DNA of 64,000 bases from a virus: IMG/VR virus record IMGVR_UViG_3300045988_165922, positions 37,893-101,892 of that record; one strand, given 5' to 3'. Below, piece by piece: positions 22,158-28,358 of this stretch. The notes beneath the pieces are model-generated. The model saw only the letters and a program-made list of their open reading frames with translations. It made no database searches and was not told the DNA's origin. Made by a program: the position numbers and the translations under genes. The first letter of the stretch is position 1; every line of letters begins with the position of its first letter.

Positions 22158-25100
22158 TCACTGTTCTTCCTTCTTTCGTAGGAGGATGATTGCCGCGACG
22201 AGTCCGCTGATGCTGACGAGCATGAGGAGCGGCAACAGCAATCCCATGCCCGTGTGCGGCATGGTCGCCAACCATGTTTCAGGCAGGACACCCGCATCCA
22301 CATGCTCCTTGGTTGGAGCATCTTGGGTGAGGGTGATGGTCAGCTTGTTGGCTTCATCCGTGTAAGCATCCGAATCAGTGGAGCTTCCATCCGCCGCAGG
22401 AGTCTTGTCTCCCACATCCGGCGTGGTGAAGTCCCGGTGGTTCACTTTGGTGAATTGGATACGGTATTTGTTGCCGTTCGCGTCCAGACGTTCGAAAATG
22501 TACTTGCCATCCTTGTCGGTCTTGGTGGTTGCCAACTGTTTGCCGTTCTCGTCAGTCAGAATGACCGTCTGACCGGCGAAATGCGTGTTCTCACCTTCAT
22601 CTTGAATGCCGTTCTTGTTGGTATCCTCCCAATACAGGCCGCTGATGGAACCGAGTTTCTTCGCGGTGGTGGTTGGTGTGATGATGGTGCCGACTTGGTC
22701 GCAGGAGTCCTCATCGGACGTGCTGAACCAGTGTTGGCGTCCTTCCTCCGTATAGTCCGTGTCGGTGCGGCATGTCGGATTGCCGGTCACATCATTCGTG
22801 TTGGCATCCAGTTTCGTAGCGTCCGGAGTGTTCGGCTTGTTTTTGCCGCTTGCGTGTGGCGTGCCCGAATATGGCGTGTGTTCGGAGTCGAACCATGCTT
22901 GGTTGAGAATGGTCTTCGTATTCTTCTTAACCCACTCGTCAATGTACGTCTGGTCTTTGCCCGTCATGTCAGCGGTCTCACGGTCAACTGTGCCGGTGAA
23001 ATGGTAGATGACATAGCCGCCCGGCTCAATCGAATACGGCAGATTGTACGTGCGGGTAGTCAACCCATTCTCAGTGGTTTCGCTCGATGGTTCGACAGGT
23101 ACGGCGGTCGGGTCGGACGAGACCGCCATACCCTTCAAACCGATCGAACGCGCGCCACCCGTCTTACCGTCACCATACGGGTCGAAGCCCGCAATCATGA
23201 CCTGCTTGCCAAGAATGAGCACGTCACGGTCACCGCCCGCCACGTCGGAGGCGATGATGCCCGTATCGACTGGCGTGCCGATGATGTCCGTGTTGTTACC
23301 GGTGGAGTCGTCCGTCCAATACATGCCGTTGCCGGTCTTGCCGTTCGCCAATTGTCCGTCACCATTCCAGCCTGAAGCCCACAAGTGTTGGTTCTTGTCG
23401 ATGGCGTACAAGGTCTGATAGCCGCCGCTGATGAGTGTGATGTCCTTCAGACTGGACACGTTGGGCGAATAGCCGTCGCGGTTCAGGGTGGCTACCGGTT
23501 GGACGGTGCCCGAATTGGTCAACGCGTATACTTGACCGAATGCGGCGGCCACCTGCATATAGCCGCTTCCTTTTGGGGTTAATGCGGTCGAAGCGCCCGC
23601 ATACAGGCTTCCGCCGTTCTTGGTCAATGCGATGAACGAGTCCATGCTTGCGCTGACTTGCGTGGATGTGACGGAGCTAATCTGGGTCAGACTCGTGTAA
23701 GTCTTGTTGCCAATGTTTCCCGTGGCCCACAGGGTTCCGTCACTGGCGATGGCGACGGTGAACTGGTTGCCGCATGCCACGTCCGTGAACGTCTTATCCG
23801 AAGCGACTTCCGTCCATTCGAAACGATTGTCCGTATCACCCGTACCCAATTGGCCTCTACTATTCCAACCGGTCGTGTACAGGTGTCCGTCCGTGCTGAT
23901 GGCGGCGGAATGTTTGCCACCGGCGGCGACTTTCAGCCAACTACCGTTGATGATGGTCGGCTTGTTCACGTTCACCGGAGTACTCGTGTTCGTGGAGTCA
24001 GGCTTGAAACCCAATTGACCATACTGGTTATTACCCCACGCATACAACAAGCCCTCATTCGTCAACACAAACTTATGGTCGCCACTCGTCGCAACCTGCT
24101 TCGCACCACCGGATTCAATACTCACAGTACCCGCCGTAGCCGTCACATCATGCACATCAGCACTCATACGGTCAGACACGACACTGGAAGTATCAAAACG
24201 AGACGTGCCGGAAGACTCAGTGGAAGTATCAGGAACAACCTGAACACCAGACTTCCAAACATGACCGTCGGAAACCAAAATCGGCGTGCTCTGGTCAGTT
24301 CCCGTGCCATCATGGTTATATCCCCATGTCCACAGGCGTCCGCCTGAATCCAAAGCCAGTCTTCCCTCTATTTGCGTAATTGTGACATCAGATTTAACCT
24401 TAATAGGAACATTTACGCAGGTATTCTCATACCCAATTCCTAATGAGCCGTGCTCATTGTTTCCCCATGCCCACCGGTGGCCGTCCGAATCTAAAGCAAA
24501 CGAGGATGAATCCCTCGCCGCAATCTGCGTGAACATGTCAGTAGAATAAACTTTAATCAGTAGGGGTTTTAAGCTGTTTTTATTAGAAGATACTCCAAGT
24601 GAACCGTAGTTATTCCACCCCCATGCCCATAGGTGACCTTCCGAATCCAAGGCGAGTGAATGCGCGCCGCCTGCGCTGACTTGGGTGAAGGTGGTGTCCG
24701 GTTTGACCTCGATAGGAGTGTTCCGGGCGGTGGTTGTTCCGTCTCCCAACTGGCCGGAACCGTTGCCTCCCCATGCCCATAGGTGACCTTCCGAATCCAA
24801 GGCGAGTGAATGCGCGCCGCCTGCGCTGACTTGGGTGAAGGTGGTGTCCGGTTTGACCTCGATAGGAGTGTTCCGGGCGGTGGTTGTTCCGTCTCCCAAC
24901 TGGCCGGAACCGTTGCCTCCCCATGCCCATAGGTGACCTTCCGAATCCAAGGCGAGTGAATGCGCGCCGCCTGCGGCAAATGTCTTCAGTGGTGGTACAC
25001 TCGGTGCCTTCTCGGTGCTCTTGCCCTTATTCTGCACCTTCACATCCCAGTTGATGACGCATTTTGTGTCCGTGCAATTGGTGCCGGTGACGGTTTTGTC

Positions 25101-28100: not shown

Positions 28101-28358
28101 GACCACGCCATCGGTAGGGGAATCATCGCCCGTGGCGAACCCGTTCTTCGAATTCACGAACGTTTGCGAACTCGTGCCATGCCCCGTACCGTCGGCTTTC
28201 TTAACGATTTTCGCAGTAGCATATGCGGGTTTCAACTCGTCCGCATGCGCTTTCGGAGAGGCTACCGGATTGGTCATGCATATCAGGCCGGATGACAGTG
28301 TGGCGATTGCGGCCAATAATGCTACCGGATGTGCCACATGCTTTTTGAGAATACCCAT
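22158..28358 (-). CDS. giant sortase-anchored surface protein / putative pilus tip adhesin with RCC1 beta-propeller repeats and CnaB-like domains, 2066 aa
   Basis: signal peptide; [27 protein letters not shown] RCC1 repeats; CnaB-like GKYIFERL / GYYEFDLL; C-terminal MPHTG followed by TM and RKKEEQ sorting signal. Confidence 0.8.
   Translation of the reverse strand: [2066 protein letters not shown]
24600..24975. repeat. ~2.5 tandem, near-identical 150-bp DNA repeats, each encoding one 50-aa RCC1 blade
   Basis: copies start at about 24621, 24771 and 24921 and are essentially identical at the DNA level. Confidence 0.8.

Follow-up and report, generated by a model that had tools for sequence, protein, structure and literature searches.

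Does a perfect DNA repeat inside the gene for a giant surface protein record a recent change in the number of its propeller blades, and does that number vary within populations? The question was raised by a 64,000-nucleotide stretch of DNA, referred to here as the window (positions 37,893 to 101,892 of the IMG/VR virus record IMGVR_UViG_3300045988_165922), in which a gene on the minus strand at 22158..28358 encodes a protein with RCC1-type beta-propeller blades. Our findings were best explained if one blade was duplicated in register, very recently, within an accessory propeller that is itself old and is eroding in this plasmid lineage, a reading to which we assign a probability of roughly 0.6. 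The duplication would be very recent because the repeated units carry no substitution of any kind. The parts of the gene on which the argument draws were as follows, with amino acids abbreviated as aa and open reading frames as ORFs.

22158..28358, minus strand: gene for the giant pilus-associated surface protein, 2066 aa as assembled (ORF list, Pfam and homologues)
28242..28358, minus strand: N-terminal signal-peptide-like segment, aa 1-39 (read from the translation and conserved in homologues)
25479..28241, minus strand: N-terminal all-beta module of about 920 aa, a chain of Ig-like domains (cluster matches, AlphaFold and structure matches)
25044..25478, minus strand: SpaA/CnaB-type stalk domain, aa ~961-1105 (Pfam SpaA match at aa 967-1012)
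24207..25022, minus strand: propeller region A, aa 1113-1384, with five RCC1 blades in the window assembly (indel, blade list and AlphaFold)
24619..24975, minus strand: tandem array of 2.38 perfect 150-bp units, aa ~1128-1247 (Tandem Repeats Finder and repeat searches)
22959..24101, minus strand: propeller region B, aa ~1420-1800, an RCC1-like domain of diverged sequence that every allele carries (Pfam WD40_RLD and RCC1)
22287..22643, minus strand: C-terminal SdrD B-like (CnaB-type) domain, aa 1906-2024 (Pfam SdrD_B and a PDB sequence match to SdrD)
22158..22262, minus strand: cell-wall sorting signal, composed of MPHTG (aa 2033-2037), a hydrophobic stretch and RKKEEQ (translation)

The perfect array extended over 24619-24975, where Tandem Repeats Finder reported a period of 150, 2.4 copies, 100% matches, 0% indels and a score of 714. 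The repeat search divided it into two full units (24619-24768 and 24769-24918) followed by the 57-nt start of a third (24919-24975), all 100% identical, giving an array size of 2.38 units of 150 bp. Identity at 207 of 207 compared positions cannot have arisen by chance. A diverged fourth copy, 57 nt long and 65% identical, lay one blade further on at 24463-24519, and the 64-kb window held no other long perfect repeat. The initial annotation had described three blades in essentially identical 150-bp units at 24600..24975; the perfect repeat stood, and its start (24619) and count (2.38 units) were corrected.

The array lay in coding orientation and in frame within the 22158..28358 ORF, from codon 1128 to codon 1247, and one 150-bp unit equaled exactly 50 codons and one RCC1 blade of propeller A, bearing out the expectation that gain or loss of a unit keeps the reading frame. 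Blades 1 and 2 were identical except for their first two residues (97-100% identity). Blade 3 had its first 19 codons in common with them and diverged thereafter (66-69% identity to blades 1 and 2), and blades 4 and 5 reached just 53-56% identity at the DNA level. The repeat unit was free of stop codons in all three coding-strand frames, which accounts for the existence of the ORFs 24569..24979 and 24610..24930. Both share the coding strand, occupy its two remaining frames and are off-frame readings of the repeat, as had been annotated. Neighboring similar blades could have undergone unequal homologous recombination or replication slippage, and either event would have duplicated one blade-length unit in register.

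The wider family indicated the background on which such an event would have taken place. The giant protein had more than 300 homologues, and counts given out of 120 refer to the 120 best of them. Propeller A was missing from 119/120 through a clean in-frame indel of 272 codons (aa 1113-1384, window 24207-25022) flanked by GGCA microhomology, and most of these 119 proteins were 1791-1797 aa long. The metagenomic homologue P0001 (2167 aa) carried propeller A with seven diverged blades and was longer than the window protein by 101 aa, the equivalent of two blades. The more distant P0249 (Bifidobacterium myosotis WP_150379363.1) and P0250 had seven blades in the same place with homologous junctions. 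Because these distant relatives have seven blades at the same site, propeller A is ancestral with seven blades and the common short form is a deletion. A recent insertion of propeller A was rejected, as distant relatives carry it at the same site. The process that would have duplicated one blade in the window allele would elsewhere in the family have removed blades or the entire propeller; the ancestral seven-bladed propeller A has been cleanly deleted in most plasmid alleles and is down to four or five blades in the window allele.

Signs of reduction were visible in individual alleles. The window allele had five propeller-A blades as assembled and four in another assembly of the same clone, and its blades 4 and 5 were degenerate, having lost the GQLGDG loop and acquired 3-aa and 5-aa deletions. 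P0247 (1686 aa, from an ENA metagenome) had three propeller-A blades, of which two were nearly identical, and just one blade in the place of propeller B; either reduction has gone further in this variant, or its near-identical blades were collapsed in assembly as well. Blade number in propeller A across family members was 7, 5, 3 or 0. At the DNA level, the RCC1 region of B. myosotis formed an array of 150-bp period with 13.8 copies and 75% matches, that of the related locus L001 an array of the same period with 6.3 copies and 74% matches, and blade-to-blade identity inside P0001 reached 88%. Such 150-bp arrays of similar blades are a substrate for unequal recombination that adds or removes blades. 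The suggestion that recombination changes blade number was thereby upheld as far as variation across the family is concerned (7/5/3/0), and it found no support as ongoing copy-number switching, since the only difference was that between two assemblies of one clone.

The alleles were also compared along the locus. L043 and L047 were 99.0-99.2% identical to the window over the ~21-kb locus, yet carried the short allele, and the 5' 3.3 kb of their giant gene was just 96-97% identical to the window. Identity in the 3' 2 kb of the gene ranged from 86% to 99% among the compared short-allele plasmids. The comparison of L038-L047 thus shows the giant gene to be a mosaic and a hotspot of divergence when set against the plasmid backbone. 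The allele type found in the window, with its shortened propeller A (the Q-type), was found in two clones only.

Whether five blades would close a ring was addressed by structure prediction, as proposed in the initial annotation. An AlphaFold model of aa 1105-1395, built on an alignment of 64 RCC1 proteins, had a predicted local distance difference test score (pLDDT) of 87, a predicted template modeling score (pTM) of 0.84 and 20 strands, arranged as five four-stranded blades. In Foldseek, the model superposed on the seven-bladed UVR8, HERC2 and RPGR over 256 columns with a root-mean-square deviation of 1.6-2.0 Å. Superposition on seven-fold rings indicated that the model is a five-sevenths open arc, and the predicted blade count would not close a seven-bladed propeller A. 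A closed five-bladed propeller A was rejected, as the model fits seven-fold geometry. Being biased by its seven-blade alignment, the model shows a prediction of RCC1 geometry rather than the actual behavior of the protein. Five-blade fragments of a seven-bladed WD40 propeller can fold as unusual dimers (Afanasieva et al. 2019, PMC6805158).

Copy number was then compared across assemblies. The relevant contigs were recovered by exact look-up of the neighboring sortase and of the target protein of an adjacent diversity-generating retroelement (DGR). An exact look-up of the 2066-aa protein returned no record, and exact-pattern scans with the repeat unit gave 0 matches in IMG/VR, GTDB representative genomes and JGI metagenomes; a degenerate right-junction pattern likewise had 0 matches in IMG/VR and JGI metagenomes. 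Blades 3-5 as protein query recovered no Q-type allele (top identity 46%), and a search with the whole of propeller A was swamped by generic multi-blade RCC1 proteins to the extent that even P0001 was not recovered. Three assemblies bore on the window allele. Contig k119_110783 of ERZ27299978 (154 kb) and a 2.6-kb contig of ERZ28662221 (SAMN33693245), the latter 100% identical to the window and not covering the array, evidently came from the same clone as the window, very likely from the same sample through different assembly pipelines. The third, scaffold_163 of ERZ28563592 (SAMEA7045199; L042), was 99.8% identical to the window with a different DGR variable repeat, and its resolved unit differed from that of the window at two sites; it represented an independent clone.

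A number of observations from these assemblies and elsewhere weighed against a recent duplication, or against the setting in which we place it. Contig k119_110783 had 0 mismatches to the window along ~31 kb, the DGR variable repeat included, and held exactly one 150-bp unit less, with 1.38 units and a protein of 2016 aa. If 1.38 is the true count, the perfect repeat is just 57 bp and no recent whole-blade duplication is needed. In scaffold_163, a 100-N gap began at the first bases of the array. Gene conversion homogenizing existing blades would give the same sequence with blade number unchanged. An open arc of five blades is odd for a functional domain, though the model that predicts it carries the bias described above. 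As for the setting, the pilus-tip role discussed below is read solely from gene order and motifs, and the assignment to a Bifidobacterium host is indirect, with no match among GTDB representative genomes or in PLSDB DNA.

The difference between the two assemblies of one clone could mean that the window over-counts the array, the true array being 1.38 units (four blades and a 57-bp perfect repeat) through which the assembler looped once too often. With 1.38 units the k=119 de Bruijn graph would be unambiguous, the shared segment being 57 nt, and contig k119_110783 would then be correct. The same graph would, however, also give 1.38 units on collapsing a longer true cycle, so this contig does not discriminate, and a path from unit through junction to unit would need supporting reads across the unit-unit junction unless k was at most 57. 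Moreover, the gap in the independent clone lies exactly at the array, which would be unexpected at 1.38 units. We considered an over-count rather unlikely, though a possibility to be taken seriously.

The opposite error, a collapse of the array in the window as well, would imply more true units; 4.38, for example, would restore a canonical seven-bladed propeller A and bring the protein close to P0001 in length. Seven is the blade number of relatives whose propeller A is intact, the extra length of P0001 corresponds to two blades, and the five-blade segment models as five-sevenths of a ring. Short-read assembly would set no upper limit on the number of units in a perfect 150-bp cycle, and the gap in scaffold_163 fell at the array. 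There was no direct evidence of such a collapse, however; the degenerate blades 4 and 5 suggested relaxed constraint and not a maintained seven-blade ring, and P0247 had a reduced blade count too, although it is also metagenome-assembled. This explanation appeared unlikely. The true unit count in this clone could be 1.38, 2.38 or more.

Both counts could also be real if one population carried a mixture of 1.38 and 2.38 units through frequent RecA-dependent unequal exchange, changing the blade number of an adhesin. The identical repeats of the streptococcal alpha C and Rib proteins likewise change in number. A mixture was consistent with two assemblies of one clone that stand exactly one unit apart, with any number of 150-bp (50-codon) units staying in frame, and with repeated gain and loss of blades in the family. 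Assembler behavior nevertheless explains the difference between the assemblies in full. Exchange would be expected to be infrequent where about two units offer 150-357 bp of homology; 119/120 alleles dispense with propeller A, so that no selected switching function is apparent, and the Q-type allele turned up in two clones only. A mixed population was accordingly judged improbable. No biological copy-number variation was found, the sole variant being 1.38 against 2.38 between assemblies of one clone, where it is indistinguishable from an assembler effect.

Gene conversion between existing neighboring blades could have homogenized 357 bp by concerted evolution. The high identity among P0001 blades and the near identity of P0247 blades 2 and 3 would be consistent with ongoing homogenization, and the two sites at which the resolved unit of L042 differs from that of the window also count in favor of conversion. 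A tract of exactly 2.38 in-register units from one donor is, however, less parsimonious than a single unequal exchange, and conversion leaves the presence of five rather than seven blades unexplained. We regarded it as very unlikely.

Duplication of one blade inside an eroding propeller was thus retained as the preferred reading, and programmed or high-frequency switching was not supported. The concern raised in the initial annotation, that the repeats might be an assembly artefact, applies to the copy number, whereas the repeat itself is real. Short-read assembly does not resolve perfect 150-bp blade repeats, such that the same clone yields a protein of 2016 or 2066 aa depending on the assembler, and blade counts from metagenome assemblies should not be over-interpreted.

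The remainder of the giant protein indicated the kind of molecule in which propeller A sits. From N- to C-terminus, the order was a signal-peptide-like segment, the ~920-aa Ig-like chain, a CnaB/SpaA-type domain, propeller A, a linker, propeller B, SdrD-B and MPHTG. The N-terminal module, which had no Pfam match in whole-protein or segment scans, defines the protein family. At E<=1e-3 it matched 164 cluster representatives, most of them 1.7-4.4 thousand aa long. Its AlphaFold model, built on an alignment of these representatives, was all beta and multi-domain (pLDDT 88); among PDB structures, it best matched PrgB in the Ig-like domains (8beg, E=1.5e-20) and antigen I/II adhesins in their C-domains. 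The RCC1 repeat signature was present, with PDB sequence matches to UVR8, HERC2 and RCC1, and the whole-protein Pfam scores were 350 bits for WD40_RLD, 223 for RCC1 and 194 for RCC1_2, spanning aa ~1125-1800. Propeller B comprised four blades detected by a blade hidden Markov model and three more degenerate ones seen by eye in the translation; its PDB sequence matches were the RCC1-like domains of RPGR and ATS1. Pfam thus confirmed that RCC1 blades and CnaB/SdrD-B-type domains are combined in one protein.

The sorting motif MPHTG, a variant with M at position 1, was kept in 119/120 homologues. A second motif, LPETW, lay eight residues upstream of it and read LPETG in one homologue. The start of the giant gene overlapped the sortase stop codon at 28358, the sortase gene being immediately upstream, and a backbone pilin gene lay upstream of the sortase.

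28358..29263, minus strand: class C sortase, 301 aa (NCBIfam class_C_sortase, 222.6 bits against a cutoff of 160; Pfam Sortase)
29399..31093, minus strand: backbone pilin, 564 aa, ending in MPKTG (Pfam GramPos_pilinBB, 68 bits, and SpaA)

The identification of the giant protein as a sortase substrate was supported by its MPHTG signal, the overlapping class C sortase gene and the upstream MPKTG backbone pilin. No pilin-motif lysine was identified in the 564-aa backbone pilin. Stalk domains of the Ig-like/CnaB kind were present, through the Pfam SpaA and SdrD_B matches and the resemblance of the N-terminal model to PrgB and antigen I/II. The cassette of pilin, sortase and giant gene was conserved in L001, L030-L033, L035 and L038-L047, with the pilin always in the same position. 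The sorting motifs covaried, being MPKTG in the pilin and MPHTG in the giant protein in the plasmid clade and LPKTG and LPHAG, respectively, in B. myosotis (L035). Covariation of the first motif position in both substrates fits a single dedicated sortase that would handle the pilin and the giant protein alike. Judged from gene order and motifs, the giant protein would most plausibly be the large, tip-type member of a pilus that is made of two pilins and assembled by a class C sortase.

A complete DGR lay directly downstream of the giant gene on the same strand (window 19006-22146, minus strand), with the following parts.

21214..22146, minus strand: DGR target, 310 aa, secreted, DUF6273
21214-21381, minus strand: DGR variable repeat (VR)
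20626..21141, minus strand: 171-aa ORF with no Pfam match, which may be Avd-like
20416-20583, minus strand: DGR template repeat (TR)
19006..20235, minus strand: DGR reverse transcriptase, 409 aa

Mismatches between TR and VR fell at TR adenines in 21 of 25 cases. When related plasmids were compared, their VRs varied in 38 columns, 32 of which were TR-adenine positions, and the TR stayed 99% conserved. This combination of VR variation at TR adenines and a conserved TR shows that the DGR is active in the population. The giant gene was rejected as a DGR target, as the TR has a single VR match in the window. DUF6273 appears in papers on phage DGR targets. The DGR was linked to the pilus cassette in all plasmid-clade loci that reach that far (L001 and L033 stop after the target gene), and the B. 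myosotis cassette had no adjacent DGR. In L030 and L031, an IS200/IS605 pair (Y1 transposase and TnpB-like OrfB) followed just after the DGR reverse transcriptase at ~18892-20718; at ~17100-18750 the window had instead two ORFs with no Pfam match, 18125..18736 and 17121..18128.

Taken together with the DGR, the variation in propeller A could be viewed in a more far-reaching way, in which propeller A is a recombinationally unstable ligand-binding module on a plasmid-encoded pilus, the 0-, 4-, 5- and 7-blade versions are real and incomplete arcs are functional. Alongside the DGR-diversified lectin-like protein, the plasmid would then have two independent ways to vary binding, and by analogy the arcs may pair between neighboring pilus subunits, as five-blade WD40 fragments do. 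We consider this quite doubtful. If blade number does vary within populations, it would provide a natural example of a propeller that gains or loses blades within a short time, the protein being a surface adhesin encoded by a widespread gut-associated megaplasmid, and would bear on propeller evolution and on the tuning of adhesion by bifidobacterial plasmids.

The plasmid setting was indicated by homologues on 220-223-kb contigs that recurred in different human-gut metagenome assemblies (including L030, L031, L033 and L046). In addition, four window proteins were 47-59% identical to, and syntenic with, proteins of B. breve pMP7017 and of B. longum megaplasmids.

32724..34064: DnaB, pMP7017-like
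42863..44077: ParA/CobQ-like protein, pMP7017-like
45723..48383: AAA ATPase, 886 aa, pMP7017-like
49419..53450: hypothetical protein, 1343 aa, pMP7017-like

The window thus seems to belong to a ~220-kb plasmid, an undescribed distant relative of the conjugative megaplasmid pMP7017 family, whose host would be a Bifidobacterium. Megablast of 21000-29300 gave no match in PLSDB or INPHARED, tblastn with the first 1000 aa of the giant protein gave none in PLSDB, and no close relative was found in GTDB representative genomes. A related-locus search of genome contigs returned only generic RCC1 proteins at 26-51% identity, and no description of this cassette was found in the pMP7017 literature. Near the far end of the window, the plus strand encodes two proteins (58459-59484 and 62137-63093), one carrying a restriction endonuclease domain of the GmrSD_C type and the other an N6/N4 DNA methylase, which may be plasmid defence or anti-restriction cargo. 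The whole cluster, a pilus cassette with an active DGR on an undescribed pMP7017 relative, deserves attention.

Comparison with known systems began with the family itself. RefSeq members were B. myosotis WP_150379363.1 (2142 aa) and B. lemurum WP_072724681.1 (2370 aa), named 'RCC1 domain-containing / SdrD B-like domain-containing protein'. No paper on the family came up in full-text searches that combined RCC1 with sortase, pilus or LPXTG, and as far as found it is uncharacterised. Both proteins shared the N-terminal ~920-aa module with the window protein, at 46% and 38% identity, respectively, and the same domain order. In B. myosotis, the same pilin/sortase/giant cassette adjoined Prim-Pol and FtsK/SpoIIIE-like genes, and propeller A was in the same position with homologous junctions. 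The B. myosotis protein had 7+6 (probably 7+7) consensus-like blades in 150-bp units that were ~75% alike, whereas the window allele had five (or four) propeller-A blades and a perfect duplication. Its cassette has motifs starting with L, the giant protein carrying LPHAG and the pilin LPKTG, unlike the MPHTG and MPKTG of the window.

Two-component sortase pili of Actinomycetota consist of a tip pilin, a shaft pilin and a class C sortase, as in FimB/FimA/SrtC2 of Actinomyces and the bifidobacterial pil loci. The window cassette resembled these in its GramPos_pilinBB/SpaA backbone pilin, its class C sortase and its large second Ig-like/CnaB substrate with a sorting signal. The large subunit differed from characterised tip pilins in its length of ~2,000 aa, RCC1 propellers, MPxTG motif and plasmid-borne cassette, and neither a vWA nor a thioester domain, typical of such pilins, was found among its Pfam and PDB matches. 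The best structural match of the Ig-like stalk was PrgB, the aggregation substance of the Enterococcus faecalis conjugative plasmid pCF10 and an LPXTG-anchored adhesin. The match reflected generic Ig-like/isopeptide-domain similarity, with 11% identity and a low global TM-score, and PrgB is without RCC1 domains and is not a pilus subunit. A mating role of the giant protein by its likeness to PrgB would be speculation.

Surface proteins that are LPxTG-anchored and carry RCC1 domains have been reported in honeybee-gut Bifidobacterium (B. asteroides), with two to four RCC1 domains of about seven repeats each and a domain number that varies among strains, read by the authors as duplication and divergence (Ellegaard et al. 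2015, PMC4449606). This precedent, the recurrence of the cassette in B. myosotis and the RefSeq name for the family together showed that the pairing of RCC1 blades with stalk domains, first annotated as unusual, is not so in this lineage. In the bee-gut proteins each RCC1 domain is preceded by Flg_new (Listeria-Bacteroides repeat), and the genes form tandem clusters on the chromosome (PMC4449606), whereas the window protein is encoded in a plasmid pilus cassette, has a different N-terminal module and gave no Flg_new Pfam match (E<=0.01 for the whole protein, E<=1 for segments).

New propellers keep arising by amplification of single blades, and both gain and loss of near-identical blades have been documented as ongoing in all propeller lineages, including RCC1/BLIP-II (Pereira & Lupas 2022, PMC9218822). 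That group made up 10% of the highly repetitive propeller set, which includes paralogues differing only in blade number (PMC9218822). In those repetitive propellers consecutive blades are nearly or fully identical, as in the window array. Our blade figures (97-100%, 66-69% and 53-56% at the DNA level) are pairwise identities and not the internal-symmetry measure to which the 60% cutoff of that study applies (PMC9218822). Amplified propellers and bifidobacterial LPxTG-anchored RCC1 proteins have thus both been published already, and the duplication described here is of an ordinary kind for propeller blades. What sets propeller A of the window apart from amplified propellers is that 2.38 of its five blades are identical and the rest diverged, in keeping with a local duplication within an old, shrinking propeller and not with new amplification of a whole one.

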